Of a stretch of 64,000 nt of DNA, positions 3,546 to 60,599 are shown one piece after another. The translations under genes were made by a program, and so were the position numbers. The stretch lies in NCBI RefSeq assembly GCF_056746865.1, contig NZ_CM163382.1. One strand, written 5' to 3'. The first letter of the stretch is position 1, and the number at the start of each line of letters is the position of its first letter. Below the pieces are notes generated by a model, which was given only the letters and a program-made list of their open reading frames with translations, did no database searches and was not told the origin of the DNA.

Positions 3546-3564
3546 ATTCCGAGTCCGGGCACCA
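3546..3564 (+). repeat. 19-bp copy of the tRNA-Phe 3' end (ATTCCGAGTCCGGGCACCA): island att direct repeat, not a complete tRNA
   Basis: Exact match to the 3' terminal 19 nt of E. coli tRNA-Phe including CCA; upstream sequence does not match the rest of the tRNA; integrase gene begins about 200 bp downstream. Confidence 0.7.
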
Positions 3565-17761: not shown

Positions 17762-17786
17762 ATTCACCCTCTGTAAGGAAAAGCTG

Positions 17787-35708: not shown

Positions 35709-35757
35709 GTTGTCTCTGTGAACTGAAGATTCTCTACAATGGTGTATAAAGTGTGAT

Positions 35758-36309: not shown

Positions 36310-36374
36310 CTATATGCCCACATTTAATTAAATATTTTTAGGGGAAGCATATTCCCTCCCCCTTCTCAATTACA

Positions 36375-37253: not shown

Positions 37254-37333
37254 GATGCTTGTTTCTTATTTTTAAATTACATAAGAATAAAGTGGCTTGA
37301 GCCGCGCCTTTCTGTTTTATCCTCACCTGTGGT

Positions 37334-43071: not shown

Positions 43072-43174
43072 AATATAACTTACAGTCCAAAGTAACAGAT
43101 GGGGGATACAGATCCTTATTAGCAGGCCTGTAGATAAGAGCAGAAATAAACACCAAAGCGCTTGCTCAATATAT

Positions 43175-44586: not shown

Positions 44587-44713
44587 GATAATCCCAAGTT
44601 TTTATGGGATATACATAACTATGGATACAACCAAGAAAAATGATTTTGCCTCAATGGAAGAAATTACGGTAATAGAATTCCATTATCCCATTTACAATCC
44701 ACTGCTACGTTAT

Positions 44714-45910
44714 TTAATCAGCCCCAAAAAGATCTCTGGTATAAACCTTTTCGGCTACATCGACTAATTCAGCAGCCATGCGATTACAGAGAATAACATC
44801 GCTCAGCGCTTTAAACTCAGCCAGTTCCCGAATCACTCGGGAATTGAAGAATGTATCTTCATGAATAGTCGGTTCAAAGACCACTACCTCAATACCCTTG
44901 GCCTTAATACGCTTCATGACTCCCTGTATCGCAGAAGAGCGGAAATTATCTGAGCCAGCCTTCATCACCAAACGATGGATGCCCACCACCTTAGGTTTAC
45001 GACGCAATACGCTATCAGCAATAAAGTCTTTGCGAGTGCAATTAGCATCGACAATGGCGCGGATCAGATTGTTGGGTACCTTGTTGTAGTTGGCCAGCAA
45101 CTGCTTGGTGTCTTTGGGCAGGCAATAGCCACCATAACCAAATGAGGGGTTGTTATAATGGCTACCGATACGCGGATCCAAGCCAACCCCTTCGATAATC
45201 TGACGACTGTCCAAGTCATGCGACTGAGCATAGGTGTCCAACTCATTGAAATAGGCCACCCGCATTGCCAGATACGTATTAGCAAACAACTTGATGGCCT
45301 CCGCCTCGGTGCTGCCCGTTAGCAGTACCGGAATGTTCTGCTTGATCGCCCCTTCTTGCAACAATTCAGCAAATCGTTTGGCCCGCTCACTACGCTCACC
45401 CACCACAATACGGGAAGGGTATAGGTTGTCATACAGCGCCTTGCCCTCACGCAAGAACTCGGGAGAGAAGATCAGATTATCGGTGCCTAACTCACTACGC
45501 AGCCGCTCGGTAAAGCCTACCGGAATGGTAGACTTGATCACCATCACTGCATTAGGGTTGATACTGATCACATCGCGAATCACCCACTCGACTGAGTCGG
45601 TGTTAAAGTAGTTGGTCTCGGGATCATAATCGGTGGGGGTAGCAATAATCACAAATTCGGCCGCCTCATACGCCTCGAATTTATTCAGCGTCGCCTTAAG
45701 GTTCAGATGATTGTTGGCCAGATAGGCCTCCAGCTCTTTATCTGCAATGGGGGATTGACGGCGATTAATCAGTTCGACTTTCTCTGGTAATATATCCAGT
45801 GCAATTACCTGATGATGTTGAGCTAATAGCACTGCAATAGAAAGACCTACATAACCAGTTCCAGCTATAGCTATTTTCATGTTATAAAATACCTGCTCAA
45901 TTAAGTTCAC
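44714..45910 (-). CDS. ugd: UDP-glucose 6-dehydrogenase
   Basis: 398 aa; [21 protein letters not shown]… NAD-binding motif and catalytic …GGYCLPKD…. Confidence 0.85.
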
Positions 45911-45928
45911 ATATATTTTTTACAAGTA

Positions 45929-47209
45929 TTATGAGGGTGCAGATTCAGTATTATATAATTTACTCATTTTTTCATGATAAAATAAAAGCGAAGGGCAAGA
46001 ATTATACTCAAAATTATTAATCTTTTTCTTGTATATTTTTCTAACAATTTCAGAAGTAAAACAGAAATTGTTTTTAGGTGGCTTCACAATAAATCTAGAA
46101 GCGACCTGAATAATTATTTTTGATGGCTTTTCATGAGCCACCACATCAAGATCCACACTCGCACCAGAAAATACATGGATTACTCTTTTATATTTATTTA
46201 CAAAATATGGAAGCATATTTATAGAATAAGAATCACCAAAAAAAACCACGACACTATCATCTATTTTGCGATTATTTTCAAATACTCTCACCCATCCTCT
46301 ATTATTAACCCCGTTATCATAAACAATATAATTATCAATACCAGAGAAATCAGCCTTCAATATATCCTGCGAAATCGGAGGGGTTGTCTTAATTCCTAAA
46401 TCGCCATAACTCCTTTTAATGTAAAAAGGGAAAATAGAATTATCGAGGACCGTGTTGTTTTTATTTAAGATATTATCTATATATTTAGCCACCTGCAATG
46501 CAGCAAAATCAGACCAGTGCGTATCAACTTTAGAATATGAGCTATCACCGATATCTCTTAATATATCTAAAGGATAAACTATATCAGTACAAATGGAGAG
46601 TAACTGTTCAACTGGTGTCTCTGGCGATTTTTTAAACGGATAGTATGATGACAATACATTCTCTTTGGCTGGAGCCAAACAAAAAACATATTCAATCCGT
46701 TGATCATTCATATATTTCCGAATAAAATCTAGATAGTTCTTCCAAACAGAAATATCATCATTTGTAATTTTTTTAATTCCAATAAACTGCTCTTTACTCT
46801 GATTGGTATCATGATCCAAGAATAAATACCCATTGTGTCCAAAAAGCACTTTTTGAGGAGGAGTTATATCTACTCTCGCTATTACATAATCAACATTATT
46901 AATAGTTGTTCCAATACTAAACGACTCCAAACTAGTAATAGCATAACTAAAACCACACATAGTATCACTAACATTTCCATTGAAATGTCTTACTACGTCT
47001 AATCTGGGTGTATTATAGTCAAGAATTAATTTCTCTCCATTCTTAACTATATATATATTATTCTGACAACCTTTATAGAGTAGCCATCCCGATAAATGAA
47101 TCGCAGAGCAATTTGACTTAAAATAACTACATGTCCGAGGACTATCAATTGAAAACTTGAGCCCGGTAATATCTGGTCTTATAACAGATAGTTTGATATC
47201 ATATTTCAT
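45929..47209 (-). CDS. hypothetical protein with recurring N-terminal module and possible SGNH/GDSL-type esterase or O-acyltransferase region
   Basis: 426 aa, very AT-rich; …VVVFFGDSYSINM… resembles a GDS(L) block. Confidence 0.4.
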   Translation of the reverse strand: MKYDIKLSVIRPDITGLKFSIDSPRTCSYFKSNCSAIHLSGWLLYKGCQNNIYIVKNGEKLILDYNTPRLDVVRHFNGNVSDTMCGFSYAITSLESFSIGTTINNVDYVIARVDITPPQKVLFGHNGYLFLDHDTNQSKEQFIGIKKITNDDISVWKNYLDFIRKYMNDQRIEYVFCLAPAKENVLSSYYPFKKSPETPVEQLLSICTDIVYPLDILRDIGDSSYSKVDTHWSDFAALQVAKYIDNILNKNNTVLDNSIFPFYIKRSYGDLGIKTTPPISQDILKADFSGIDNYIVYDNGVNNRGWVRVFENNRKIDDSVVVFFGDSYSINMLPYFVNKYKRVIHVFSGASVDLDVVAHEKPSKIIIQVASRFIVKPPKNNFCFTSEIVRKIYKKKINNFEYNSCPSLLFYHEKMSKLYNTESAPS

Positions 47210-47215
47210 TAAATT

Positions 47216-48445
47216 TTAAACCAATTTTGAAACTAATTCTTCATTGAGTGGAAATTCTAAACTAACTAATCCAGCCTGATTTAAAGTATATATCTGAACG
47301 CTTGAGATAAGTTGTGTAGGAAGCGACAACGAACATATAAACCCGCACCCAATTCCATTACCAATCCCAGCTTTTTCTACATCAGGCCGATCATAAAATG
47401 ATAGTGAGTCTGGGCGTATTAAAAAAGAGTTATTTATAACCATTACAATACTACTACATGGTTTTTTATCATTATCTACTGCCCAACCTTTTAGAACTAT
47501 AGCACGTCCATCTTTTTTAATTGTATCAATAAATCCAACCCCCATACTTTTAGTAGTCTTATAAAGTGGTTCACTTCTGCTTTCTATGAGCGGCTGATAT
47601 CCACAATCAAGCAATTTCTCATTAATGGTTGCGATTTGACATTTTACTTTTCTCAGAAACCATAATGGAATATGTTGCTCAATATTATTCAAATCATGAT
47701 TTTTAAAAAATTGCAGATTTCTACCGAGACTATTTTTTAGTGTTGTAGCTCTACCTCGAGCGACCTTTTTATTCAAGAATTCAGCCTTTGACTTAATTAC
47801 ATAATGATTAAGTCTGATAACTGACCAGTCAATCACCTCACTTATTCCATCATAACTATGATGTTCTTCTCCACTTGGCATAACAAATTTCTTATCTGAA
47901 TTAATAATAAAAGCATGGGGTGTTGGTCCTGCTTTGATAACATCAGAAACACGAACTATTGACTTATAATGCCTATTAACAGGATGCAGATCAGCAGCTC
48001 TCTTAACGAATCGTTCTATAACAAGACCGTCATCAGGTAAAATTGAATGAGATGAGCCATATACAGCCCAGTTGAGTGATATTGCACCAATCGCCTGATC
48101 ATTTAATAGCGGCATCAGTTTGTTTAAACCATCTTCATAGTCATTTGGTGAAATAAATTCATCTGCATCAATAAATGCAACCCATCTATCTTTATCAAGC
48201 ATTGACAATATTTTATTGTACGCCCCCAATTGTGGGGGAATACCATCTTGTGTCGGATAGTCAATCCTTTTGATAATATTCGCTTTATCTAGAAAATATA
48301 AAAGCTCACTACTTCCATCACTACTAATATTGTCGGCAATATATATATCATTAATGCCAAGAGCCATATGGTAAGCAATCCACTCAACAATGAATGGGTA
48401 TTCATTTTTTAAAATTGCACCTATTGAAAGCATCGCTGTTATCAC
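47216..48445 (-). CDS. putative glycosyltransferase (GT-A-like) with C-terminal recurring module
   Basis: 409 aa; N-terminal domain paralogous to 43175..44143; C-terminal …IVLKGWAV…RPDV…CGF…. Confidence 0.5.
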   Translation of the reverse strand: MITAMLSIGAILKNEYPFIVEWIAYHMALGINDIYIADNISSDGSSELLYFLDKANIIKRIDYPTQDGIPPQLGAYNKILSMLDKDRWVAFIDADEFISPNDYEDGLNKLMPLLNDQAIGAISLNWAVYGSSHSILPDDGLVIERFVKRAADLHPVNRHYKSIVRVSDVIKAGPTPHAFIINSDKKFVMPSGEEHHSYDGISEVIDWSVIRLNHYVIKSKAEFLNKKVARGRATTLKNSLGRNLQFFKNHDLNNIEQHIPLWFLRKVKCQIATINEKLLDCGYQPLIESRSEPLYKTTKSMGVGFIDTIKKDGRAIVLKGWAVDNDKKPCSSIVMVINNSFLIRPDSLSFYDRPDVEKAGIGNGIGCGFICSLSLPTQLISSVQIYTLNQAGLVSLEFPLNEELVSKLV

Positions 48446-48456
48446 TCTACTTAAAA

Positions 48457-50874
48457 TTAAATGGAGAAGTCTTCTCTATCTTTAGATAGGTTTGGACTGT
48501 AGAAGGGATCGAGTTCGAGATGTTTACCCCATTTGCTTTTCATAAAGTTCACTTCCCTGGCAAATCTGGCTATTTTCTCCGGGGAATCTTCGGCACCTCG
48601 ACTAATTGATTCATAGTGGTAAAGCTCGGCATAAGGCGTCCAGAGATTACGGTACCCCGCTTCGCGTACTTTCAGACAGAAGTCCACATCATTAAAAGCA
48701 ACATGCAAATTCTCTTCATCCAACCCGGCAACTTCCTCATAAATATTTTTGCGAATAAGCAGGCAAGCAGCCGTGACGGCCGAGAGAGTTTGTGTCAACA
48801 ACAAACGGCTGAAATAACCCGGATGATGGCGAGGGTACTGTTTATGAGAGTGTCCCGCTACACCACCAATACCGAGAATAACTCCGCCATGTTGTAAAGT
48901 ATCATTACTGTAATAGAGCTTGGCCCCGACACAACCAATCTCTGGTCGCATGCAGTGACTCACCATCTCGGTCAGCCAATCCGGGTTGATTACCTCGACA
49001 TCATTATTGACCAAGCCGATAATGGCCCCCTTGGCGTGACGAACGCCAAAGTTGTTGATGGCCGAGTAGTTAAAGGGGTGGTCATAGCGCAATACTCTGA
49101 CCCGGCTGTCTTCCTGCTGGATCTGGGCAAAGAAATCGAGAGTCTCCTGCTCCACGCTGCCATTATCGAGAATCAGGATCTCGAAATGGGTATAGGTACT
49201 GCGATCGATGATGCTACGCACCGCAGTTTCGGTTAGAGCACGACGATCCCGAGTAGGAATAAGCAAACTAACCAGTGGGGCTGGTTCTGAAATAGGGTAA
49301 CGTACCCGATAGGTGTTGGGAACCAACCCCGCCTCAACCGTAACCTCAGGTTGCTGCTTAGAAAAATAGTCGCGTAGCGCTTTGATGCCAGCCTCCGTGG
49401 TGTAGCTCTTCTCGCCAGAAGCCAAAGCTGTAGAGCCCTCAATGGTACGCCAGTGGTAAAGCACACGGGGAATGTGAACTATCTGCTCTGCAGCTACATG
49501 AGGCAGACAACGCAGCAGCAGATCCTGATCCTGACTTCCTTCTACTCCCAAACGGAATCCCCCAATCTGTTGCAGCAGAGAGCGACGATAGACCCCGAGA
49601 TGCGAGACATAGTTTTGCGAAAAGAATAAATCTGGATTCCAATCGCTCTTGAAATGAGGATCAAAACGCTCACCGCGGGCATTAATTTTATCTTCGTCAC
49701 TGTAAAGGATCTGGGTATGAGGCTGCTCACAAATAGCCTGAGCCATAAATAGCATAGCATGCTCTGGCAACACATCATCATGATCCAACAGAGCTACGAA
49801 ATCCCCTTTTGCAATTTCGAGAGCACTGTTGGAAGCAGCCGAAATATGACCATTGTGCTTTCGGTAGACAACTTTGATTCGGCTATCCTTGGCCTCGTAT
49901 TCGCGCAGTACGCGTTGCACATGTTCTTTTGGCGAACGATCATCGGCAATACAGAGTTCCCAATGGGGATAGCTTTGAGCCAGGACAGAATCCAGACAGG
50001 CACGCAAGTAGATCTCCGCTGGATTATAAACAGGAATCACAATAGATATAACTGGAGGGTGAGTCATACTGGCAAGCATCAGACTCACCTCTTTGTTGCC
50101 AGGCAACGAAGGTAATTCCACCGTTTCTATCCATTCCTCATAACCGACAGAAAACGGGGTAACGCTGAACGTTTCGTTATAGAATGCCTGCAGGCGCTCT
50201 ATTGACATATCGCCATTGTCCATCAATATGGATTTTTTGATTTTTTCTAGCGGCATGTCACGATAGCTTTGGTGTTCTTTTTGAATGCGAGCCAATAGTG
50301 CAGACTCAACTACTTTCACATCAACAGCTGCTATTTCAAACTGATTAATTGCAAATGTTGCTGCCTGTTCTAATGGATCAAATCGTAATGCAACAAGAGG
50401 CGATTCCAGATAGAACAAACGACTGACGCTGACCGCTCGTTTATATGGCAACGTTACTGTTTCAAACTCATTGAACCCTTTACCTGTATCCAAATATAAC
50501 TTAGCTAATCCTTGCTTTGGTTGGCAATTAATAGAGATATTAAATTGATACCATCCCTTGCTAATATTTGAGAGCTGCTCCAAATCAATAATGAAAAATG
50601 GATCATTTCCCTCTGCAACCCAACTTTGTGAATTATCTATATCTATCGAGAGCTGATTTGTTGCCAGATAGGGCAGCACAACTGTATTTTGCATTTTACT
50701 CACTGCAGGAGAAACGTCCCATGCTTCGCATGGTTTCCTACCGAGTAACATCCCATAACGCTTAAAATGTTCTCTTGCTGACAACCCGGTCTGTTTCACA
50801 TCCAAATAGTTATGCAGATACCAATGTTCATCAAAGTGAGCTAGCAACTCGTCTTGGTGATTTTTAACCATCAC
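48457..50874 (-). CDS. two-domain family 2 glycosyltransferase
   Basis: 805 aa; two GT-A signatures (…ISIVIPVYNPAEIYLRACLDSV… and …VSLLIPTRDRRALTETAVRSI…); N-terminal FDEHWYLHNYLDV… motif shared with the C-terminus of the 909-aa protein. Confidence 0.7.
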   Translation of the reverse strand: MMVKNHQDELLAHFDEHWYLHNYLDVKQTGLSAREHFKRYGMLLGRKPCEAWDVSPAVSKMQNTVVLPYLATNQLSIDIDNSQSWVAEGNDPFFIIDLEQLSNISKGWYQFNISINCQPKQGLAKLYLDTGKGFNEFETVTLPYKRAVSVSRLFYLESPLVALRFDPLEQAATFAINQFEIAAVDVKVVESALLARIQKEHQSYRDMPLEKIKKSILMDNGDMSIERLQAFYNETFSVTPFSVGYEEWIETVELPSLPGNKEVSLMLASMTHPPVISIVIPVYNPAEIYLRACLDSVLAQSYPHWELCIADDRSPKEHVQRVLREYEAKDSRIKVVYRKHNGHISAASNSALEIAKGDFVALLDHDDVLPEHAMLFMAQAICEQPHTQILYSDEDKINARGERFDPHFKSDWNPDLFFSQNYVSHLGVYRRSLLQQIGGFRLGVEGSQDQDLLLRCLPHVAAEQIVHIPRVLYHWRTIEGSTALASGEKSYTTEAGIKALRDYFSKQQPEVTVEAGLVPNTYRVRYPISEPAPLVSLLIPTRDRRALTETAVRSIIDRSTYTHFEILILDNGSVEQETLDFFAQIQQEDSRVRVLRYDHPFNYSAINNFGVRHAKGAIIGLVNNDVEVINPDWLTEMVSHCMRPEIGCVGAKLYYSNDTLQHGGVILGIGGVAGHSHKQYPRHHPGYFSRLLLTQTLSAVTAACLLIRKNIYEEVAGLDEENLHVAFNDVDFCLKVREAGYRNLWTPYAELYHYESISRGAEDSPEKIARFAREVNFMKSKWGKHLELDPFYSPNLSKDREDFSI

Positions 50875-50876
50875 TT

Positions 50877-53606
50877 TTATTCTCCCTTATTGACAGGCAG
50901 GCAACTGCGCTGCTCAAACTTCCCATACATAATGTAATGAAGCAGCGGATTAATGCCTCCTTGGGCCACATCCGGATAGGCTTGCAAATACCAGCGAGTA
51001 TCAAACTGCTCACTAGGGCTATAACCTTTATCCGCCCCCACGCTAATAAAATGCTCAAGAGCTGAGAGCCCAGTGTCTGCAACCTCTGGGTAGCGATGTT
51101 GATACCAGAGTTCATCAAACAATCCTGAAGCGGCAATACGCTCCGCGGCACTCTCTGTAGCTGTTGTTCTGGATGGAGTCTCCTTAAATGTTCTGCCAAG
51201 AGCACGAACTGGGGCTGTAATCTTCCAAGAGACGGTTCTCTTCAAATTCTGAGCGCGTTCTTTTGCTCTATTCAATTGCCGCTCTTTTTGTTTTAACTCA
51301 CAGCTAAGCTGCTCCATATGCCGCGTCATGACTGCCAACTCCTGGAAACGCTCTGCAATATTAGCTTCCAACCTTCCGTTGAGTGTGGTTAGTTCTCTTA
51401 CCTGGTCTTGCAGTACAGACTGCTGGCTCTGCAGCAAGGTTTGTTCCCGGATTAAGGCCTCCTTCTCTTCTTTCCAGGCTTGCTGCTGAGCTCTATATGT
51501 TTCATTGGTCTGTTGTTGTTCACTTGCTGCGCTAAGGAGTGCCTGATCACGTTCTTCCAGCCAACGGGTTAAGGTTGCAATCTCGCTGTACCGCTCATTG
51601 AGCACCGATTCCAACTCATCAAGTTGATGTTGCTTTTCTTTTGCTGCTGAGAGCAATGCAGACTGGGCCTGCTGAAGCGACTCTTGCTCAGCCCTTAACT
51701 GCTGCTCTACGCCAGACAACTTGGTGGTAATCAATTGTTTTTCAATCTCTAGTTCAGTGATAATCTGCTTGTGCTCTTCTAATAGACGTGTTAGAGCTAC
51801 CGTTTCACTAAAACGCTCGGCTAATGCCAAGTCCCGTTCGCTAATCTGTTGCTGATGTGTGGTCTGTTCAACTGCCAGTTGTTGTTGTAATGCTGATAGC
51901 GCCTCTGTGAGTTGCTTATACTCTGCTTGTTGAGCAGCCATTACGTCGCTTTGTGACGCAATATTAGACTCGCGCACTGCTATTAGTTGAGTCAGTTCAT
52001 CACATTGTTTAGAAGCCGCAGCCAAAGCAAGAGTTTGCTCATCTATGCTTTGCTGCAATGTTTGTTGCACAAGTTGCCCTTCTTCCAACTGTTGCTGTAG
52101 ATTTGCACTTACCTTTTTCAGTGCATCATATTCCAAGCCTAACGTATCGTGCTGTGCTTCCAGTAATCCATAAGCATGCTGCAACTGGTTTTTAGTTTGC
52201 TGCTCACCGTCAAGCTGCTGCTGCAATGCATTAGCCTGCTGTTGCAACAAGTTCACCATATTGTCTCGCTCGGCCAGTGTACGAACCTGTGTATCCTGGA
52301 CATGTAGCGCTTGTTCCAACTGAAGCTGTAATTCGGTAATTTGCCGCGAATGTTCGCTCAATGCTCTGTTACTCTTGCTGAGCGCGAGAGTAAGGTGAGA
52401 TGCACGCTGTGTTTCTTCACTCAATTGTAACGTCAGGGTATTGACCTGTTGCTCCAGTTGATGGCGAGCTTGCTCCTGGCTCGTGATGCGACTCTGTTGC
52501 TGCTCTAGTTGATGCAGAGCTGTATGCAACTCATCGTTGGCTTGTATTCGCTCCTGCGACCATACACTCAAGTTTGTTTGGGCCTCATTGAGCTGTTCTT
52601 GCAATAATGCCACCTCAGATGTCAGCGAATTGATATGTTGCTGGGCAAAAGATAGCTCATCAGATTGCACTTGAGCATGTGCAAGCTGCTTTTCCATTTC
52701 TAATATGCTGTTATGTTGTGCAGTAATGCGCTCGGCAAGACGCCCTCTTTCCAATGCCTGCTGTTCTACCAATAGCTGCCGTTCAGCCTGAATGTCATCT
52801 TGTTGTGTAGACAACTGACGTTTTAACAGGGAATTCTCCCAACTCTCGCTACAAGATTTCCCCAAACGACAAAAGATGTCTTGGACTTGTTTGGTTACAC
52901 GAGCATTTTCTGAGATTTTATACAAATTATTAAGTTCTGGAGATTGTTCACACCCCACACCAACTATCCCTAGTCCATGCCCATGAGCGAACTCAAAGTG
53001 TGGATATTGTCGTTTTAATTCATCCAAAAGCTGAAATACGCCAAAACCACGTTCCCTAACATTGGTATCATGCATAATGACCACAGCCCTTTCAGAAAGC
53101 TTTGGCAACCAGCTTTCAAAATCATGGCGTACCGCTTCGAACGTATGCAAACCATCAATATGAAGCAGATCAATGCTACCTTGTGAAAAATGCTCTAACG
53201 CTTGGTCAAATGTACTGCGAATGAGAGTAGAAAAACCTGAATAGTGCTGTTGATTATATTCTGATACTTGCCTGTAAACTTCTTCGCCATACAGCCCCGC
53301 ATGTTCATCTCCCCCCCAGGTATCAACGGCAAAGCAGCATGTTTCTAAATCTAGTTTAGAGACTGCCTGGCAGAATGAGAAATAAGAACTTCCATAATGA
53401 GTTCCCAGCTCAACAATATTTCTTGGCCGCAGTGTGTCAACTAACCAGAAAGCAAAAGGAATATGTTCTAGCCAAGCAGATTGTGCAAGATATGTAGGAC
53501 GCCAAAAAAGAGATGATTTGAAAATGAAATTCAATTCCCCGCCAATATCAGTGATGGGATATAACTCACGATTTTCTACTAACTGACTAATTTTTTGACT
53601 ATCCAT
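50877..53606 (-). CDS. methyltransferase-domain protein with ~550-aa coiled coil and C-terminal repeat motif
   Basis: 909 aa; N-terminal …IVELGTHYGSSYFSF…IDLLHIDGLHTFEAVRHDFESWLPKLSERAVVIMHDT… resembles class I SAM-dependent (Methyltransf_24-like) methyltransferases; residues ~250-800 are Q/E/L-rich heptad-like sequence; C-terminus has two FD..WY…YPDV… repeats. Confidence 0.6.
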   Translation of the reverse strand: MDSQKISQLVENRELYPITDIGGELNFIFKSSLFWRPTYLAQSAWLEHIPFAFWLVDTLRPRNIVELGTHYGSSYFSFCQAVSKLDLETCCFAVDTWGGDEHAGLYGEEVYRQVSEYNQQHYSGFSTLIRSTFDQALEHFSQGSIDLLHIDGLHTFEAVRHDFESWLPKLSERAVVIMHDTNVRERGFGVFQLLDELKRQYPHFEFAHGHGLGIVGVGCEQSPELNNLYKISENARVTKQVQDIFCRLGKSCSESWENSLLKRQLSTQQDDIQAERQLLVEQQALERGRLAERITAQHNSILEMEKQLAHAQVQSDELSFAQQHINSLTSEVALLQEQLNEAQTNLSVWSQERIQANDELHTALHQLEQQQSRITSQEQARHQLEQQVNTLTLQLSEETQRASHLTLALSKSNRALSEHSRQITELQLQLEQALHVQDTQVRTLAERDNMVNLLQQQANALQQQLDGEQQTKNQLQHAYGLLEAQHDTLGLEYDALKKVSANLQQQLEEGQLVQQTLQQSIDEQTLALAAASKQCDELTQLIAVRESNIASQSDVMAAQQAEYKQLTEALSALQQQLAVEQTTHQQQISERDLALAERFSETVALTRLLEEHKQIITELEIEKQLITTKLSGVEQQLRAEQESLQQAQSALLSAAKEKQHQLDELESVLNERYSEIATLTRWLEERDQALLSAASEQQQTNETYRAQQQAWKEEKEALIREQTLLQSQQSVLQDQVRELTTLNGRLEANIAERFQELAVMTRHMEQLSCELKQKERQLNRAKERAQNLKRTVSWKITAPVRALGRTFKETPSRTTATESAAERIAASGLFDELWYQHRYPEVADTGLSALEHFISVGADKGYSPSEQFDTRWYLQAYPDVAQGGINPLLHYIMYGKFEQRSCLPVNKGE

Positions 53607-53746
53607 TGAGGAAAACTCACATGTATTTATAGAATTAAATCAAGAAACCTGAAAATACCTATAGTGCGGTAACTTATTAACTAACATTAAAATATTAACA
53701 ATACACTTGGAAATATTAGTTAAAAATAAATCATTATGATTTCTCA

Positions 53747-54949
53747 TCAATCCTGGTGCTCACGCAAAGTTGCCAGCCCCATAATAATAAGACCATAGAA
53801 CAAGCAAAGTAATACACCCACAGTCGCAAGATTATAGAATCGCCGTGGATATTCGGCATCTTCCGCTAAAGTTGGTTGGGTAATAACCAATAGGTGCTTA
53901 AGTTTACGATATGCCTCAACCCGCGTCTGCTCTAAGCTGATAAGGCCAGTTTTGTAGAGATCCGCTGCCAAGGTTGCCTGCGTTTGCACATCCATGTAAC
54001 CGGCGGTGATTTCATTCATGGCATCGTTATCTTGACCAGTCAGCTTAGCACGCTCCTGTTCAAGCTGCTTGGTTAGGGCGTCAACTCGGCTCTGTAATGA
54101 GACTACGGCCGGTGCGGTTTCCTTCATATAGCTGCGCAGTTGTTTTAGCTCCGCCTGTTGACGCACCAGCTCTCCTTCAATCTGGCTGACCACTCCTAAG
54201 CGTGCGCTGCTGGTAGATTCAGGGCTGAGAAGTTGGTGGCTATTCTGAAATGCTAATACTTTAGCTTTTTCATCCTGTAAGCGTTGATATGCTCTATTTA
54301 CTTCTTTTTCAACAAAGGCCAATTGTTCGAGCGCAACCTGATGACCTAATTTGTTAATAAAACGCTCCGATTCTTTGAGCATTAACTCAACAACTCGCTG
54401 ACCGTATTGGGGATCAAATGTCTGCAACTCAACGGTAAGTACTCCTGATAATTCATCAAGATGTAACGTCAAATGTTTGCGGTAATAATCAAGAAAATCC
54501 TCCCTACTGACTCCCTTATGCAACCGCGAGAAATAATCTGCACTATCACTCTGGAAATGTGCTTTAAGTGCAAGTTCTTTGTCCAACTTGGCCAGCATAT
54601 CCCATGACTTCATATAATCCTGAACGAGTAATATATCCTGATGATTACTACCACCGATCCCTAACATTGATAACGCATCAGGCAACATTTTAACTTGATC
54701 GGCTTGTTTAATCATTAATTCAGCCCGGCTCACATAACGATCGGAAGCAATGAAGCCAAAATAGAGCACTGCGATAGAAAAGCAGATAACTACCCAAAGA
54801 AAACTGCCTAGCTGTAAACTTTTCTTCCACGAGCGGTGTACAATTTGATATCCTCTCGAATCAATCAAAAATAGTTTTGGATTATTGCTCAGTTTTCTTA
54901 ACTTTCGCGCAAGGCGAGATATTGAGGATGAAGAATTCGGAGATGTCAT
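53747..54949 (-). CDS. kpsE: capsule export inner-membrane protein KpsE
   Basis: ORF 53747..55006; start at MTSPN (54949) avoids overlap with kpsT; N-terminal TM segment then long periplasmic helical region and C-terminal hydrophobic segment. Confidence 0.7.
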   Translation of the reverse strand: MTSPNSSSSISRLARKLRKLSNNPKLFLIDSRGYQIVHRSWKKSLQLGSFLWVVICFSIAVLYFGFIASDRYVSRAELMIKQADQVKMLPDALSMLGIGGSNHQDILLVQDYMKSWDMLAKLDKELALKAHFQSDSADYFSRLHKGVSREDFLDYYRKHLTLHLDELSGVLTVELQTFDPQYGQRVVELMLKESERFINKLGHQVALEQLAFVEKEVNRAYQRLQDEKAKVLAFQNSHQLLSPESTSSARLGVVSQIEGELVRQQAELKQLRSYMKETAPAVVSLQSRVDALTKQLEQERAKLTGQDNDAMNEITAGYMDVQTQATLAADLYKTGLISLEQTRVEAYRKLKHLLVITQPTLAEDAEYPRRFYNLATVGVLLCLFYGLIIMGLATLREHQD

Positions 54950-54962
54950 AATCAGTTGCTGC

Positions 54963-55613
54963 TCAAAGTGACTGGTAAATTTTGATGGCATCATCAATAT
55001 TATCAAAAACTTCTAATTTACCATCACGTAACAAGATGCCCATATCGCATTGTTGTCGTAGATTTTTCATATCATGTGAAACCATAATCAAACTAGCTGT
55101 TTCTCGCTTTTTGTTAAATACATCAATACATTTTTGTTTAAAACGTGCATCACCTACTGAGGTAATTTCATCGGTAAGATATATATCAAAATCAAAAGCC
55201 ATACTAACAGCAAAAGAAAATTTTGATTTCATGCCGCTAGAGTATGTTTTAATAGGCAACTCATAATGTTGTCCAATTTCAGAAAACTCTTTAACCCACT
55301 CTTCTACGGTGCTTGTATCGCGTACACCATGAATGCGGCAAACAAATCGCGTGTTTTCACGACCAGTCATACTACCTTGAAATCCCCCACCTAGTGCTAG
55401 AGGCCAAGATACTCGGCAGAGACGAGTTACTTTCCCCCTGTTAGGCGTATCCATCCCTCCTAACAAACGTAACAAAGTAGATTTTCCTGCTCCATTGATA
55501 CCTAGAATACCTATATTACGGTCCCTTGGTAGCTCAATATTTACATTCCTCAGGACATAATTTCGTCCAAATTTAGTCGGATAATATTTTGATACATTAT
55601 CAAGAATAATCAT
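54963..55613 (-). CDS. kpsT: capsule ABC transporter ATP-binding protein KpsT
   Basis: 216 aa; Walker A GINGAGKST, ABC signature YSSGMKSKF, Walker B IYLTDE. Confidence 0.9.
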   Translation of the reverse strand: MIILDNVSKYYPTKFGRNYVLRNVNIELPRDRNIGILGINGAGKSTLLRLLGGMDTPNRGKVTRLCRVSWPLALGGGFQGSMTGRENTRFVCRIHGVRDTSTVEEWVKEFSEIGQHYELPIKTYSSGMKSKFSFAVSMAFDFDIYLTDEITSVGDARFKQKCIDVFNKKRETASLIMVSHDMKNLRQQCDMGILLRDGKLEVFDNIDDAIKIYQSL

Positions 55614-55624
55614 TTTTCTTAACG

Positions 55625-56425
55625 CTAACTAGCAATCAATTGGCGATGCCGTAATCGGTAACAACTCATAGCAAAAGTGAGCAATAATAAGGTGACAACC
55701 GACAGATACGCCCAACTTACATCAGGACTACGATAACCAGATATCCATGCCCTTCGGATTAGTTCTACAGCATGCACAAGTGGATTCCATAAAAACCAAT
55801 GCTGATATTGAGGGGGAATAGTAGCAAGAGGAAACATAACACAAGAGATAAACATCAAAGGCATCATTAACAAGCTAAGAAATTTATCTGCCTCTTTCGC
55901 TAAGTTACAAATAACACAAAATACAATACCAAGAGAAAAAGAAAACAGCATCAGAAGAGAATAACCAAGGATCACTTGCAATGGATCCGCAGGTATTGCA
56001 TCAAAGCCAAACCACAATAATCCTAGTACTAGGATGATACCGACAATCATGCCCACCATTGTTTCTAGCATAAAACGTGCTATAAAAGTTGCAAAAGGAG
56101 TCACTTGTCTATAACAAAAAAGTCCCATATTAGCATTGACAGCAGATTTCAACTGAGTCACAACTTTATTGAAAAACATGAAAGGTAAATAACCAGCAGT
56201 AATAAAAACCTGGGCTGGGACACCACCAAAGCCACTTTGGCTTCTCATCCCAAATACTACACTGAACAGGCTAATCATTAATAATGGGTCAAGTAATGCC
56301 CAAGCATAACCTAGTCGGTAATTACCAAATCTTGTTTTTAGCTCACGAATTAATAAGCCAAATACTACATCACGTAATACTTGCAAAGAAGTGCGTGGAG
56401 TTTGACTAATAATGGGTTTGTCCAT
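55625..56425 (-). CDS. kpsM: capsule ABC transporter permease KpsM
   Basis: 266 aa; ABC-2 type permease with six predicted TM segments; immediately upstream of kpsT. Confidence 0.9.
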   Translation of the reverse strand: MDKPIISQTPRTSLQVLRDVVFGLLIRELKTRFGNYRLGYAWALLDPLLMISLFSVVFGMRSQSGFGGVPAQVFITAGYLPFMFFNKVVTQLKSAVNANMGLFCYRQVTPFATFIARFMLETMVGMIVGIILVLGLLWFGFDAIPADPLQVILGYSLLMLFSFSLGIVFCVICNLAKEADKFLSLLMMPLMFISCVMFPLATIPPQYQHWFLWNPLVHAVELIRRAWISGYRSPDVSWAYLSVVTLLLLTFAMSCYRLRHRQLIAS

Positions 56426-56491
56426 TAATACTTACCCAAATAATCGGCTCATTATAGCAACGAGCCTCCGATTAAAATTTAAAACACTCAA

Positions 56492-58237
56492 TCATTTAAT
56501 AGCAACGTTAGCAGCTACAGCGATTTGATAAATAATTTGTGTGATATCTTTAAATGATTGCATGGTTTTGCTATCAACCTGAGGTAGAACCAATATCTGA
56601 TCCCCCGGTTGTACTTTACCTTGCCCTTTAAATTCTACAAGACCATTTGCATGTACAATAGCAATTCGCTTGTCGTTAGCTCGCTCAGTAAAACCTCCGG
56701 CCCATGCAACATAATCATCCAAATTAGCATCGGCATTATATACTACTGCTTGTGGCATCAACACTTCACCACCCACTTGAATAAGATCAGTCTTATTTGG
56801 AATAACTATTTGATCGCCTTGTTCTAATTGGATATTGGCAATAACACCTTTATCTGCAACTACTACTTTACCAAGCGGTTGAACTTTACGAGCCTTTTCA
56901 ACAAACTGCATCACTAACTCTGCTTCTTTAGCACGTATATTCGCCTCACCATCAGATCGCGCGGGTGTGGTAAATACACTACGTTCCAAGCGGTTTAGAG
57001 ATTCATCCAGCATCTCTTTTTGTCTTGCAGCCACACTCTTTCGTATCAGATAAATTGATTGATAATCCGCAAGCTCTGGGTCAATAGGGATATAGTTCAA
57101 TAAATCATGCAATTTAGTTTGCTTACGAACCGTGAAATATGACGGTCCCATATAACTGCCTGATACTTGTATATCATATACTTGTGCATGCATGTCATCA
57201 TTAAAAAGTACTTTGTCACCGTCTTTAAGTTGAAGACGTGTAAAATCTTTATACGGCAAGTAGACGGAAAACGGGCCGCTTTCCCTGTCGCCAATCACAC
57301 CGACATGACTGACTTTTGCGAGAGGAAGTGCATAATTCACCAATTCAGAGCCTAATGCATTGCGCTGGGTAAGCTCAAATCGGAATGGGTTTCGAACCTT
57401 TCCCGCAACATTGATCATTGGACCTTGTTGCTCAACTAAAATCACATCTTGATCTTTTAATGCCAGCTTCGGGAGTTTCCCATACCGTATGAAATCATAA
57501 AGATCAATTTGCTGTATTACTCTATTTTGTCGTAACACCTTAATTTTTCGATAACTTCCACGGTCAGAATCTATTCCACCGGCACGTTTTAAAAAATACA
57601 ATATACTATCAGAAGATTGTCCTGCATACTGCCCAGGACGAATTACAGGCCCCGTAACGAATACACTTACAGGGGTTGCAGTCAAAAGATTTACGTAAGT
57701 ATTTACATTATTGGTAAATACATCACCGATCTTACTTGCCACCAACTGATTAACTTGGCTTGCAGGAACATTTTTTACATTTATTGGACCTACATCAGGT
57801 ATGAAAATATTTCCTTGATTATCTACCGTAACCACATTAGAGAAATTGACCGCTCCCCAAATCCAGATATTTAACTTATCCCCAGGAGCAATCAAATAAT
57901 TATCGCTTAAGCCGTCACTCCTTTCTGTTTCATAGCCTCCGGCAAATAAATTAGCACCATACGGAGGAGGTAAGCCTGCTTCAGATTGCGGCAGTAATTT
58001 TCGTACATCTGACTCTCCTGGAAGCAACATCCCATTACGATTCTGTTGTGTGAAGCTTCCTGTTGTGGAGGTTGTATTAGGCTGTCCAGTGATGTCTGCT
58101 AGCATTTTCCGAGACTCTCCTGTCGAGGCAGCAAGATCATAATCTAAATGTGAACCATTAGATTGATTTTGCTCTATTGCGGCGAATGCTGATGCAGAAA
58201 TAAGAAAGAGAAGAGTGCTAAGTTGCGAAATTTTCAT
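56492..58237 (-). CDS. kpsD: capsule polysaccharide export protein KpsD (Wza-like)
   Basis: 581 aa with signal peptide (MKISQLSTLLFLISASAFA); polysaccharide-export family regions; first recognisable kps gene of a kpsD-M-T-E block. Confidence 0.8.
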   Translation of the reverse strand: MKISQLSTLLFLISASAFAAIEQNQSNGSHLDYDLAASTGESRKMLADITGQPNTTSTTGSFTQQNRNGMLLPGESDVRKLLPQSEAGLPPPYGANLFAGGYETERSDGLSDNYLIAPGDKLNIWIWGAVNFSNVVTVDNQGNIFIPDVGPINVKNVPASQVNQLVASKIGDVFTNNVNTYVNLLTATPVSVFVTGPVIRPGQYAGQSSDSILYFLKRAGGIDSDRGSYRKIKVLRQNRVIQQIDLYDFIRYGKLPKLALKDQDVILVEQQGPMINVAGKVRNPFRFELTQRNALGSELVNYALPLAKVSHVGVIGDRESGPFSVYLPYKDFTRLQLKDGDKVLFNDDMHAQVYDIQVSGSYMGPSYFTVRKQTKLHDLLNYIPIDPELADYQSIYLIRKSVAARQKEMLDESLNRLERSVFTTPARSDGEANIRAKEAELVMQFVEKARKVQPLGKVVVADKGVIANIQLEQGDQIVIPNKTDLIQVGGEVLMPQAVVYNADANLDDYVAWAGGFTERANDKRIAIVHANGLVEFKGQGKVQPGDQILVLPQVDSKTMQSFKDITQIIYQIAVAANVAIK

Positions 58238-58263: not shown

Positions 58264-58635
58264 TTATTCTTCAATAAGCAAAGTGCTAACTGATGTTTGT
58301 TCCAACTGAGGTACTTGATACCACTTGTTATTCTCTTTACATACAACACTTCGCTTTGAATAATTTTTATTCATCGCATAACTTAACTTTATGCATTGAG
58401 AACCTAAAGCCGATATATACCTTTCCTCAATAGTATAAATTACGCCATTTTTGTTGAATGTCGTGCCTTGATCTTGGTTATTTAATGGTGCCTGCAAATC
58501 TTCAGGAATAAGAGAATAAGAAGAATTAATCGCTGTTACCAATGGACGAGAGGCTTCAACTTGTTTTGGATCATGTGCGCAGGCCGTTATAAAAAAGATT
58601 AGTGAAAATAATAAAATACGATGTGCAAGGTGCAT
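58264..58635 (-). CDS. putative small lipoprotein
   Basis: 123 aa; signal peptide with lipobox-like FITAC; directly upstream of and co-directional with kpsD. Confidence 0.45.
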   Translation of the reverse strand: MHLAHRILLFSLIFFITACAHDPKQVEASRPLVTAINSSYSLIPEDLQAPLNNQDQGTTFNKNGVIYTIEERYISALGSQCIKLSYAMNKNYSKRSVVCKENNKWYQVPQLEQTSVSTLLIEE

Positions 58636-59565
58636 TTTAAAACGTTATCCAAAAGTTGATAGTATGTAAAACAATTACCTTCTATTATTGATACTCTGAC
58701 AGATATCAATAATAGCCCATAAATATAAGATATTTAAAATTATAACCACACAAATTAATCATAGATGTTGCTAGTATAAGATTGACTTTAGTCAACTGGT
58801 GTTTACATCATCTGTTTATAACTAATTACGAATATATCCTTTATCTTTTGGATATGTACTACATATGCAACACACATCCCTAAAAATATTATTTTTATGG
58901 CCCCGTATATTGCTATCTTTTTTTTATAAAATTTAATAATAACAACCATATGGAAGAGAAAATCCCTCTTATACATAAAGAGGGATCAATTAAATAAATT
59001 TGTTTTGTAATGACTCAGTAAGGCATAGACGTTTTCATAAATTCTTAAATTACTATCCCCAAAAATCTAAGTCCTGAAAAACTTTAACACTCTAATATTT
59101 TCATGAGCCGTTCAGCACACCCTCAACTTCGATAAAAAATGCTAACTAGTAAATAATTGTCGCAATAATAATAGTCGTACTTTATCAATAACAGATAAAC
59201 AAAAATAATAAAAAAGAGGGGAGATACACTTGCGATAGAATGGCGGCTTCTTGCCCCCCTTTGCCCGGTCCTGACTAGCATGGCTGGAGTCAGTGTCAGG
59301 CCACGACCATGCTCATCATGGAAGCAGCTTTTGTAGTACACTTCGCAGCTTATTTTCCTGGAACGAAATGTCTGGCATCGTGGTGCATAACATAACCCCC
59401 AATGCCCAGCAGATGCACAGAAGGTTCTAGAATCGCCCACTGATATCCCATACAAAATTTACCAAAACGTGTTCGTATTTCTCGTATAAATAATGTCTCT
59501 ATGGTGACGTTCTAGACTTCAAACCCACTTTTTGAATTTGATGATGTGCTCCTAATCTCTTCAGG

Positions 59566-59577
59566 AATGCTACCGCC
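59566..59577 (-). promoter_or_regulatory. ops-like element (GGCGGTAGCATT on the minus strand) in the kps leader; candidate RfaH recruitment site
   Basis: Reverse complement of 59566-59577 reads GGCGGTAGCATT, matching the ops core GGCGGTAG; lies about 930 bp upstream of the first ORF of the kpsD-M-T-E block. Confidence 0.4.
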
Positions 59578-60062
59578 CCTGGCTTTACAGCTACCAATAC
59601 ACTGGAGGTATACTTATCTGCAACTGGATGAACTAGATATACTTGAGCAAACATTTCATAAGCTCGACGAACAGTTTTCGTAGAAATTATTTTCCTTATT
59701 TAAAATTCACTTATTGATTATCTCTAGGAATTTTACTAATTTCCAAGTCACATAAAATACAGATCACACAAGAATTATCCTATATGCTTTAACCTATCAA
59801 TTATTACTCAATGATTCATTACAACTATTAATAATCATAATGCGTCAAAACACTTAAGCAACTTTACAGTCTGAGAAAGGTGTCGATTCACAAGGACTGC
59901 ATAGTGAAAAACGAATTCCTACAGTATTATCGAACATTCCGTGGTGGTCTGGAGGGAGATAACCCTTGCTACATCGGAACTCAGCCCGGTGAGCGGGTTT
60001 GACAGTTCCGCACTCACCTTTGGGCTAAGGTTATCAGGTGGGGTTTAAGGGGATGGCAATAC

Positions 60063-60599
60063 TTACCCCCGTCCAAACTCCAGCCGCTGCACGTTCACCA
60101 TTCCAGCCTTTTCATCTGCACTGACATCAATTTGTGTCACCCGCAGCGCATACTTTTCATCCAGCGCGTTTAACCAGTTCAGCAGATCATTAAATACCAC
60201 AGGATCTATCCAGACCTGGATATTCTCCCCGCGCTCGGCTATCCGCTTAATGACCACTGAATGCGCCGAAGCACTGTCACTGATGACCCGCGATACCTGC
60301 GCAGGCGTTGTTGTGGCAGATTTTCGCGCTGCAATAATATCCGGCGCGGCGTTCTTCAGTCGGGTGTTCATCGCCACCAGCTGCTGCAATATTGTCTCCT
60401 GTTGCTCAATCCGTTCGCTCAACGGCTGCCAGATGAGGACGTAATATCCGACGCTAAACAGGAACACCACCGCTGCCAGTAACATGCCCTTTTCACGCGG
60501 AGAACGCCCCGCCAGGTGTTGTGCCAGCCAGTGTTCGCCACGGCTTAACTGGCGTTCACGCCATTGCTGAAAATAGTGAATAAATTTATCGCGTAACAT
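60063..60599 (-). CDS. gspM: type II secretion system protein GspM (YghD-like)
   Basis: 178 aa; single N-terminal TM helix; last gene of the gspH-to-M run. Confidence 0.8.
   Translation of the reverse strand: MLRDKFIHYFQQWRERQLSRGEHWLAQHLAGRSPREKGMLLAAVVFLFSVGYYVLIWQPLSERIEQQETILQQLVAMNTRLKNAAPDIIAARKSATTTPAQVSRVISDSASAHSVVIKRIAERGENIQVWIDPVVFNDLLNWLNALDEKYALRVTQIDVSADEKAGMVNVQRLEFGRG

Follow-up and report, generated by a model that had tools for sequence, protein, structure and literature searches.

The region between gspM and the kps genes as the probable RfaH-read 5' regulatory region of an Escherichia coli group 3 capsule operon, with group 2 ancestry

The interval at positions 58636 to 60062 of the window, the stretch of 64,000 nucleotides that was analysed, is in all probability (approximately 0.85) the 5' regulatory region of one long group 3 (3A-type) capsule operon, composite in structure, derived from a replaced group 2 locus, and read by RfaH. 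The anatomy of the interval and its homologies are observed directly; the position of the promoter upstream of 59683, the need for rfaH and the dispensability of the stretch after the ops element are probable by analogy with strain M12, whose entire interval is 98.5% identical. The M12 kps locus is of group 3 (K96), and its 5' region was described by the Erickson laboratory (mSphere 2026, PMC13410964; bioRxiv 2025). The finding of ops and the leader in the window is therefore correct but known: the ops element, the long leader, the kpsM' fragment and the RfaH dependence were established in this near-identical locus and are no discovery. The M12 paper does not contain the homology to the group 2 promoter PR3, the 532-bp difference in the leader or the IS110 fragment. 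Two points are added here. A PR3-orthologous leader that lacks the 532 bp bearing an H-NS site would offer a testable account of temperature-independence, and the promoter predicted in M12 lies approximately 36 nt downstream of the position matching the mapped start of K5. Invasive E. coli lineages, ST69 among them, increasingly carry group 3 capsules (K54/K96 and relatives), whose expression hangs on this single regulatory region.

Layout of the interval and of the capsule locus

The interval comprises exactly the gap between the stop codon of gspM (60063) and the ATG of an ORF of 123 amino acids (58635). It is bounded on the right by gspM/yghD (60063..60599, minus strand; Pfam T2SSM, E = 5.6e-46), the gene that closes the type II secretion operon; PGAP, in near-identical genomes, labels it 'GspM family protein YghD'. 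The GC content of the interval is 35.6% overall, versus 55.7% in the gsp genes, and is patchy: 25-32% at 58600-59200 and 26-35% at 59600-59900, with richer patches at 59200-59600 (40-50%) and 59900-60062 (approximately 50%). Reading leftwards from gspM, approximately 430 nt of PR3-like sequence are followed by a shortened leader, JUMPstart/ops, the kpsM' pseudogene, the IS110 fragment and a spacer of approximately 580 nt, beyond which the minus strand carries the 123-aa ORF, kpsDMTE, region 2 and kpsCS. A preliminary description of this DNA spoke of a long AT-rich kps leader. The leader stands, and its uniformity does not: the approximately 320 nt proximal to gspM lie upstream of the promoter, and the middle consists of a group 2 kpsM relic and the IS110 fragment. 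The kpsM pseudogene fragment, the IS110-family transposase fragment, the promoter and the group 3 (versus group 2) identity of the locus were absent from that description. No repeats shared by the interval and the opposite end of the cluster were found.

The group 3 capsule operon was delimited with Pfam at 31178..58237 (minus strand), with kpsD, kpsM, kpsT, kpsE, region 2, kpsC and kpsS in order of transcription (kpsD 58237-56492; kpsC 35708-33561; kpsS 32407-31178). The kpsDMTE genes at the 5' end and kpsCS at the 3' end run in one direction and account for the domains Poly_export/SLBB, ABC2_membrane, ABC_tran and two copies of Capsule_synth. Region 2 encodes a methyltransferase-domain protein, glycosyltransferases, ugd and rmlBDAC. 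With regard to kpsF/kpsU, the 20 cluster ORFs that were scanned contain no SIS or CMP-Kdo synthetase domain; the K5 locus, in contrast, has both kpsF and kdsB/kpsU. The locus belongs to the group 3 (3A) capsule clusters of E. coli and not to those of group 2. FDAARGOS_1250 and HCM-24C-3 were considered as full-length matches to the window and rejected, neither being collinear over the whole island.

The cluster sits in the pheV island beside gsp (yghD), with gspM-L-K-J-I on its right and the pheV repeat and island modules on its left. In K-12, pheV (3110366-3110441) lies 148 bp from the gspM homolog yghD (3110590-3111126), as had been stated. The earlier observation that neither a tRNA-Phe nor its 3'-end repeat stands beside gspM in the present locus also holds: no tRNA was detected in the whole window by ARAGORN or by Rfam, and 58636-60062 contains no pheV 3'-end repeat at up to 3 mismatches and no 23-mer or 16-mer match. 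A pheV remnant beside gspM was likewise rejected, since K-12 homology breaks off no more than 2 nt from the stop codon of gspM and the spacer between pheV and yghD in K-12 is unrelated. Pattern search placed the pheV 3'-end repeat TTTCATTCCGAGTCCGGGCACCA at 3542..3564 (plus strand), 56 kb to the left of the interval, where it is followed by a P4-type integrase gene (3762-5027, Pfam domains). This repeat is an internal island junction and not an intact tRNA; the intact pheV of a related genome is located approximately 35 kb past the left edge of the window. Both positions agree with the view that the ancestral tRNA and the insertion point are located further left.

The kpsM' pseudogene (59357..59537, minus strand) represents the decayed first 64 or so codons of a group-2-type kpsM, with 83% identity to K5 positions 975-1263. 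Its lesions, read from the translations, are ATG to ATT, CAG to TAG, a frameshift and truncation. PGAP labels it a pseudogene, 'ABC transporter permease, frameshifted, missing C-terminus', and the M12 paper names the kpsM' fragment too (PMC13410964). Where the group 2 homology ends, there is an internal fragment of an IS110-family transposase (59213..59324, plus strand), with 75-80% DNA identity to the ISEc20/ISSfl4 transposase genes and, by blastx, 56% identity to residues 254-287 of the ISEc20 transposase (E = 5e-7). A single IS110 relic common to group 2 and group 3 boundaries was considered and rejected, the fragment on the kpsF side of K5 being a different, far more divergent IS110-family sequence with no DNA similarity to the window. 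The AT-rich spacer (58636..59212, minus strand; 25-32% GC) is untranslated and group-3-specific; no group 2 homolog of it was found, and among the 5,426 complete genomes of E. coli, 99 carry it at 95% identity or higher. It contains a terminator-like hairpin (58961..58987, minus strand; dG -13.8 kcal/mol) that has a U-rich tail and is oriented as kps is transcribed; divergent loci conserve this hairpin only in part, and its significance is therefore doubtful. The 123-aa hypothetical ORF (58264..58635, minus strand), taken in the preliminary description as the first kps-side ORF, has a lipoprotein-like N-terminus (…FFITAC). It belongs to no Pfam family and has near-identical homologs only, and was rejected as a conserved capsule gene. 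In M12, capsule is still made after a deletion equivalent to window 59561-58126, which leaves ops and 4 nt; the spacer is dispensable and the 123-aa ORF unnecessary for capsule in that strain (PMC13410964). No plasmid copies of the leader were found, the single full match being a chromosome filed among plasmids; a Klebsiella oxytoca plasmid carries its own JUMPstart-kpsMT.

The promoter region next to gspM

The part of the interval adjoining gspM (59634..60062, minus strand) is a PR3-like segment. Its alignment (59634-60075, 442 nt) shows 89.2% identity to K5 positions 1-442, which form the end nearest gspM of the region upstream of kpsM. Approximately 1,450 group 2 genomes match it at 80-90% identity. 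Region 3 of K5 is described as PR3, a 741-nt leader and JUMPstart/ops, with kpsMT after them (Stevens 1997 and Xue 2009, cited by PMC8960920); PR3 is 741 bp ahead of the kpsM ATG and has a -10 but lacks a -35 (Stevens 1997, cited by the same paper). A TATTTT at 59754..59759 (minus strand) is homologous to the K5 PR3 -10 and implies a start at approximately 59746; transferred by alignment and BLAST map, it may serve as the -10 in group 3. The second candidate, TTGGAA-N18-GATAAT at 59717..59746 (minus strand), is the promoter prediction (-35/-10) of the M12 paper and is identical in four group 3 loci. It was also found by promoter scan, which is uninformative by itself because the region yielded 7 sites versus 7.7 expected, i.e. 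chance frequency. The K5-derived start (approximately 59746) and the M12-predicted -10 (59722-59717) thus disagree by approximately 36 nt, the M12 prediction being the downstream one, and either of the two candidate -10 elements may be the one that serves. The bases swapped in the M12 'OxyR-binding-site' mutant pRDP3 correspond to 59781..59798 (minus strand; primer flanks 59825-59799 and 59780-59760), and this replacement abolished reporter activity in M12 (PMC13410964). A scan of the window with the OxyR consensus gave a best score of 12/20 in this region, at 59797-59761, a score reached equally by 130 window sites, so that the sequence by itself speaks neither for nor against an OxyR site.

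The published distances from the kpsD start in M12 (ops 1,473 nt, -35 1,641 nt, -10 1,617 nt; PMC13410964) fit the window exactly when kpsD is started at Met45 (58105). A cloned 1.95-kb upstream fragment of M12 alone drives lacZ from a plasmid, and the reporter pTS3, which starts at the equivalent of window 59683 and has the distal promoter removed, is inactive (PMC13410964). Since pTS3 is inactive although all downstream DNA is kept, there is no proximal promoter; mapped base for base onto the window, the M12 constructs place the promoter, by analogy, upstream of 59683. The same reporters speak to the reading that kps is transcribed mainly by read-through from the co-directional gsp operon. 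This is very improbable, although with gspM co-directional some read-through may occur. The two are on the same strand, gspM and kps being 1.4 kb apart, and the hairpin after gspM is without a U-tract; against this, the fragment drives lacZ from a plasmid and activity is gone without the region upstream of 59683, the homologous region of K5 contains an experimentally mapped promoter (PMC8960920), and gspM is followed by a structured GC-rich stretch (59960-60062, within the PR3-like segment) with a predicted hairpin of dG -33.5 kcal/mol.

The JUMPstart/ops element and RfaH

A JUMPstart element (Rfam RF01707) was detected at 59566..59604 (minus strand) with 54.4 bits, compared with a gathering score of 35 bits; model positions 1-38 of 38 are matched, with E = 1e-9 over the whole 64-kb window. 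The ops 12-mer GGCGGTAGCATT (59577-59566) is the 3' end of this full-length JUMPstart, which includes the hairpin, and the published extended ops motif RGGCGGTAGYNT (quoted from PMC3101779) is matched by GGGCGGTAGCAT at 59578-59567 (minus strand). The 12-mer at 59566-59577 had been called ops-like; the motif search of the interval that was proposed with it identifies a genuine ops, part of the RF01707 match, on the sense strand of the kps genes (58635 down to 31178) and upstream of approximately 27 kb of co-directional operon. The 8-nt core GGCGGTAG occurs only once in the 64-kb window and is by itself at chance level (1 found versus 1.0 expected; at least one in 62 of 100 shuffles), as would suit a chance match in AT-rich DNA, a core of this length being expected approximately once per 64 kb. 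That explanation is already refuted by the match to the full 38-position covariance model with its hairpin and by the orthology, seen in sequence comparison, of the element to the JUMPstart of K5 kpsM. The K5 and M12 elements score 58.5 and 55.8 bits, respectively. The Rfam matches STnc230 and SNORA84 were weak and below threshold, and were dismissed.

The delta-rfaH mutant of M12 makes no capsule, and the dependence on RfaH was shown by this deletion together with complementation (PMC13410964). The predicted -35/-10 and the ops 12-mer of M12 are identical to those of the window, and the RfaH dependence of kps claimed in the preliminary description has thus been seen experimentally in a near-identical locus. 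RfaH would act through the window's own ops. It is unlikely that JUMPstart/ops is instead a functionless remnant of the group 2 kpsM leader that stood here before, with the group 3 genes independent of it and the rfaH phenotype indirect, e.g. through the LPS core. The element does lie directly upstream of a pseudogene, capsule retention in group 2 is altered in LPS-core mutants (PMC8960920), and the link between RfaH and the window motif is circumstantial because a literature search found no ops mutant of any group 3 locus. However, the ops 12-mer is identical in the window, M12, FDAARGOS_1250 and strain 50579417, i.e. 100% conserved in four group 3 loci, whereas the adjacent kpsM' decays differently among them; the reporter without the distal promoter is inactive with all downstream DNA present; transposon insertions across the kps intergenic region of M12 abolish the capsule (PMC13410964); and there is no second ops in the 64 kb.

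With the interval as an RfaH-read regulatory region, transcription would start at a sigma-70 promoter, homologous to PR3, in the AT-rich patch approximately 320-350 nt from gspM. Approximately 130-170 nt further, RNA polymerase would meet JUMPstart/ops, and RfaH would be recruited at the non-template strand. The RfaH-modified polymerase would withstand Rho, H-NS and hairpin-dependent termination, and would traverse 0.93 kb of untranslated DNA to the 123-aa ORF or 1.33 kb to kpsD, crossing the kpsM' pseudogene, the transposase fragment and the AT-rich spacer. Transcription would then run for approximately 27 kb through kpsDMTE, region 2 and kpsCS.

Comparison with known capsule and RfaH-dependent loci

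M12 and the window are alike in the kpsM' fragment, the 123-aa ORF and kpsDMTE, and have the same order in the 5' and 3' parts of the kps locus. The JUMPstart stem differs in one base (G versus A) with pairing kept. The first half of region 2 is unlike, and the K-type of the window is therefore different. The group III K54 boundary of CP9, reportedly described by Russo et al. in 1998, is said to hold a 'truncated kpsM', 5' regulatory sequence and an IS110-like sequence. It would share with the window a truncated group-2-like kpsM and leader at the cluster end and an IS110-related sequence within approximately 50 bp; the IS110 stretch of the window lies inside the transposase gene (ISEc20 residues 254-287) and not in terminal repeats. 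The K10 capsule is also said to be rfaH-dependent (reportedly Clarke et al. in 1999).

K5 occupies the same chromosomal site next to gspM/yghD, with a kpsM-yghD gap of 1,057 bp. Its promoter region is 89% identical to that of the window, and its JUMPstart and kpsM 5' end 83% identical; RfaH/ops antitermination into the downstream biosynthesis genes would be common to K5 and group 3. Mutants in rfaH are also defective in the LPS core, and capsule retention can be affected (group 2, PMC8960920). The BLAST segment map places the junction of a 532-bp indel at 59633..59634 (minus strand), K5 positions 443-974 (+114 to +645) being absent from the window. The implied start consequently lies 209 nt from the kpsM' start position, versus 741 in K5. 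The 28-nt spacing from ops to kpsM is kept, but kpsM is not intact: the first translated ORF of the window begins 930-1,328 nt past ops, as opposed to 28 nt in K5, and ops is followed by kpsDMTE … kpsCS as a single operon instead of intact kpsMT. The H-NS 3' site of K5, at +141 to +219 (PMC8960920), falls inside the 532 bp that the leader of the window lacks. Group 3 capsules are temperature-independent (PMC13410964), and since the 532 bp with the H-NS site for group 2 cold repression (20ºC) are missing, this temperature-independence may follow. We tentatively suggest that the group 3 promoter is a re-used group 2 PR3 whose loss of the 532 bp would explain expression at all temperatures; a link between PR3, the 532 bp and temperature-independence was not found in the accessible published papers.

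In CFT073, RfaH loads at the single ops of the leader and takes RNA polymerase through H-NS-bound AT-rich kps DNA (PMC9765446). The hly leader of uropathogenic E. coli resembles the window in that ops, within AT-rich DNA prone to H-NS binding, precedes the first start codon by a long distance (PMC9765446). The distance from ops to the start is approximately 600 nt in hly (PMC9765446) and 930-1,328 nt in the window; at 0.93-1.33 kb, the latter would exceed every other such distance found for an RfaH operon.

Capsule leader and JUMPstart element

The interval 58636-60062 is the already described RfaH-dependent leader of a group 3 capsule locus. It fills exactly the space that separates the gspM/yghD stop codon (gene at 60063-60599, Pfam T2SSM) from the ATG that opens a 123-aa ORF (58264-58635); both genes are on the minus strand. 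Its GC content averages 35.6%, versus 55.7% in the gsp genes, and in this respect its description as AT-rich holds; the composition is uneven, however, with patches of 40-50% GC at 59200-59600 and of about 50% at 59900-60062. The AT-rich remainder (58636-59212, 25-32% GC) has no group 2 counterpart, and a terminator-like hairpin with a U-rich tail lies in the kps direction at 58987-58961 (dG -13.8 kcal/mol). A perfect 12-nt inverted repeat (CTATTATTGATA … TATCAATAATAG, 10-nt spacer, hairpin dG -13.2) is located at 58682-58715, at a distance of 47-80 nt before the start of the 123-aa ORF, and is only partly conserved in divergent loci. Directly after the gspM stop, the stretch 59960-60062 is GC-rich, strongly structured (dG -33.5 kcal/mol) and kept in group 2 genomes; despite having no U-tract, it is a candidate terminator of the gsp operon.

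The ops 12-mer GGCGGTAGCATT is present on the minus strand at 59566-59577, where the preliminary description had placed an ops-like element. The 8-nt ops core by itself is non-significant (1 copy in 64 kb versus 1.0 expected; at least one copy in 62 of 100 shuffles). A complete JUMPstart element lies at 59566-59604 (minus strand) and has the 12-mer as its 3' end. All 38 positions of the Rfam RF01707 model are matched, hairpin included, with 54.4 bits (gathering score 35) and an E-value of 4.6e-11 over the region and 1.1e-9 over the whole window. This 3' end also agrees with the published motif RGGCGGTAGYNT (PMC3101779). The earlier observation is confirmed, and its interpretation is supported.

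Promoter region in M12 and in group 2

A 2026 mSphere paper (PMC13410964, preprint 2025) describes the leader region of the ExPEC strain M12 (K96, group 3): from the T2SS gene to kpsD runs a 5' UTR of unusual length, which holds a kpsM' pseudogene fragment, a hypothetical ORF, and predicted -35 and -10 hexamers; the ops lies downstream of these hexamers, and a putative OxyR site lies on their upstream side. The interval in M12 and its derivatives is 98.5% identical to that of the window, with the same ops 12-mer and predicted -35/-10. The distances published for M12 appeared about 132 nt too long, which is explained by the supplementary table, where kpsD is counted from Met45 of the 581-aa ORF (window 58105; CDS start 1148869 versus 1148737 in PGAP). 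From 58105, the -35 TTGGAA falls at 59746 (published 1,641 nt) and the -10 GATAAT at 59722 (1,617 nt), both base-exact, and the ops at 59577 (1,473 nt), within one base. Primer mapping places the start of the inactive construct pTS3 at window 59683, the 'OxyR-site' mutation at 59798-59781 (replaced), and the 5'-UTR deletion at 59561-58126, with the ops plus 4 nt retained. The kpsD 5' end (58105-58237) distinguishes the 537-aa form of the M12 paper (from Met45) from the 581-aa PGAP form; the long N-terminus MKISQLSTLLFLISASAFAA looks like a signal peptide, as in the KpsD of K5 (MKLFKSILLIAACHAAQA), and the Met45 form is hydrophilic. The M12 deletion thus extends into the long kpsD form and takes away its codons 1-37. 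Capsule was still made after this deletion of the ops-to-kpsD stretch (called present by Alcian blue, data not shown; PMC13410964); either Met45 is usable as a start, or the assay is blind to exported versus non-exported polymer.

In group 2 (K5) genomes kpsM adjoins yghD, with a spacer of 1,057 bp. In a BLAST segment map of the window against this region, window 60075-59634 corresponds to K5 positions 1-442 (89% identity), K5 positions 443-974 (532 bp) have no counterpart, and window 59632-59357 corresponds to K5 positions 975-1263 (83% identity), comprising the JUMPstart, a conserved 28-nt spacer and the first ~64 kpsM codons. In K5, the region 3 promoter, PR3, has a -10 but lacks a -35; 741 bp separate it from the kpsM ATG downstream, and 28 bp separate the ops from kpsM (Stevens 1997, as cited in PMC8960920). 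Since this 28-nt spacing is that of the aligned K5 genome, the K5 numbering transfers to the window. As judged from the alignment, PR3 of group 2 is the ortholog of the group 3 promoter region. The K5 start site corresponds to window ~59746, and TATTTT is conserved at 59759-59754. The -35 predicted in M12 starts exactly at the K5-derived start position, and the two promoter calls lie ~36 nt apart; the inactive pTS3 construct is compatible with both, and the 'OxyR-site' mutation overlaps the place where the -35 of the TATTTT promoter would fall.

The absent 532 bp are K5 +114 to +645 and include the H-NS 3' site (+141 to +219), reported as essential for PR3 silencing at 20 C (Xue et al. 2009, as cited in PMC8960920); the upstream H-NS site region (K5 -135 to -21, roughly window 59881-59767) is kept. 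According to PMC13410964, group 3 capsules do not depend on temperature. Because the indel, either a deletion in this leader or an insertion in group 2, takes in the site needed at 20 C, we infer that it is a plausible cause of this property. The PR3 orthology and the leader indel are absent from the literature examined and form a modest, testable addition.

The kpsM relic, capsule genes and island structure

In near-identical genomes PGAP annotates a pseudogene in the interval ('ABC transporter permease', frameshifted, C-terminally truncated). Minus-strand translation downstream of the JUMPstart gives SGFEV*NVTIETLFIREIRTRFGKF…, the beginning of KpsM interrupted by an in-frame stop and by a frameshift; this kpsM' has ATT at its start codon position (59537-59535). 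At about 59357 the homology to group 2 stops and is directly followed by an internal fragment of an IS110-family transposase gene (59213-59324, plus strand) with 75-80% DNA identity to ISEc20/ISSfl4 (blastx, 56% identity to ISEc20 residues 254-287, E = 5e-7). Two more divergent versions of the locus, about 85-90% identical, have the truncation point and the IS110 fragment unchanged, so this junction is ancestral to the lineage. Their kpsM' lesions differ (ATG kept, a different frameshift), which indicates that kpsM' is decaying neutrally; their spacer has a ~170-nt indel, and the hairpin at 58987-58961 is weakened and thus not strongly constrained. Among 5,426 complete E. coli genomes, 99 carry the group-3-specific leader, none of them below 95% identity. 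Russo et al. 1998 reportedly described a truncated group-II-like kpsM, its regulatory sequence and an IS110-like sequence at the border of the K54 cluster. About 20 complete genomes have an IS5 within the leader, between kpsM' and the 123-aa ORF, downstream of the ops and oriented against kps transcription (for example strain 50579417, about 1240-2440 of its locus, equivalent to window ~59278/59279). The K5 strain GTEN_23 has an IS110-family transposase fragment upstream of kpsF in the group 2 cluster flank (2690-2872 of its locus); it is highly divergent and without similarity to the window's fragment, and is a different sequence.

The capsule genes left of the interval are all on the minus strand. 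In order of transcription, the 123-aa ORF is followed by KpsD (581 aa, Poly_export/SLBB), KpsM (ABC-2 permease), KpsT (ABC ATPase) and KpsE, then by a methyltransferase-domain protein, several glycosyltransferases, ugd and rmlBDAC, and by KpsC (35708-33561) and KpsS (32407-31178), both Capsule_synth. This is the group 3 layout (kpsDMTE … kpsCS in a single direction, no kpsF or kpsU) instead of the group 2 layout implicit in the preliminary description. Region 2 (43000-53700) differs from M12 K96 in its first half (909-aa methyltransferase-domain, 805-aa double GT2, 409-aa and 426-aa proteins) and shares the distal half (673-aa GT2, 343-aa protein, rmlBDAC), so the K-type is related but different. 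The kpsC-kpsS gap (32408-33560, 1.15 kb, 32-35% GC) has no ORF of at least 100 aa, as in M12. The kpsS stretch 31232-32601 has 84% DNA identity to K5 kpsS but, relative to gspM, is oriented the other way round than in K5; this is consistent with the published group 2 origin of 3A-lineage kpsS (PMC13171606). On a 29-kb Klebsiella oxytoca plasmid (NZ_LR890315.1), a kps-like cluster has a JUMPstart of its own (4144-4182, 51.9 bits), located between kpsS-like and kpsC-like genes, which directly precede it, and kpsMT, which follows closely.

ARAGORN found no tRNA in the whole window, and the pheV 3' end has no match inside the interval with up to 3 mismatches, as the preliminary description had it. 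In K-12, pheV does lie beside yghD, 148 bp away, as the preliminary description stated; K-12/window homology breaks off no more than about 2 nt from the gspM stop codon. The placement of the ancestral tRNA and insertion point further left is supported by a pheV 3'-end repeat TTTCATTCCGAGTCCGGGCACCA (3542-3564, last 16 nt exact), followed by a P4-type integrase gene (3762-5027). Left of the repeat is the tail of another CP4-type island (CbeA, DUF5983, DUF4942, ParE); the window thus holds an internal island junction and not an intact tRNA. HCM-24C-3 matches the first 5.2 kb at 99.8%, is not fully collinear further right, and has an intact tRNA-Phe beside yqgA, about 35 kb past the left end of the window. 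Positions 1-31200 form two tandem CP4-type modules split at 3542-5027, both ending in DUF932/antirestriction/CbeA-CbtA/DUF5983 genes, and the second adjoins the kpsS 3' end at about 31189-31232. Rfam gathering-level matches within the island are the isrC Hfq-binding sRNA (150 bits, 9472-9594, plus strand), also found in M12 adjoining an ISEc31 element, and IS102 RNA (71 bits, 17532-17768, plus strand).

Transcription and RfaH

Transcription would start from a promoter within the AT-rich stretch around 59700-59800, and the ops in the non-template strand would recruit RfaH 130-170 nt later. The RfaH-bound polymerase would then traverse untranslated, AT-rich DNA full of relics, 930 nt of it before the 123-aa ORF or 1,328 nt before kpsD, and go on through the ~27-kb operon. 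An rfaH mutation is reported to abolish the K10 capsule (Clarke et al. 1999). The leader anatomy is seen in the window itself and the genetics in M12, in which capsule was lost upon transposon insertion in the intergenic region, a lacZ fusion required the distal promoter segment, and delta-rfaH and delta-oxyR mutants had no capsule, were serum-sensitive and were attenuated (PMC13410964). The delta-rfaH result and the identical ops uphold the earlier claim of RfaH dependence, and we infer that RfaH acts through the window's ops. The proposed route is the established mode of action of RfaH: in CFT073, RfaH loads at the single ops of the kps leader and takes RNAP through H-NS/StpA-bound DNA (PMC9765446). 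In CFT073, the start lies 40-67 nt from the ops in kps, wzx and rfa, and about 600 nt from it in hly (PMC9765446), versus 930 nt (123-aa ORF) or 1,328 nt (kpsD) in the group 3 leader of the window.
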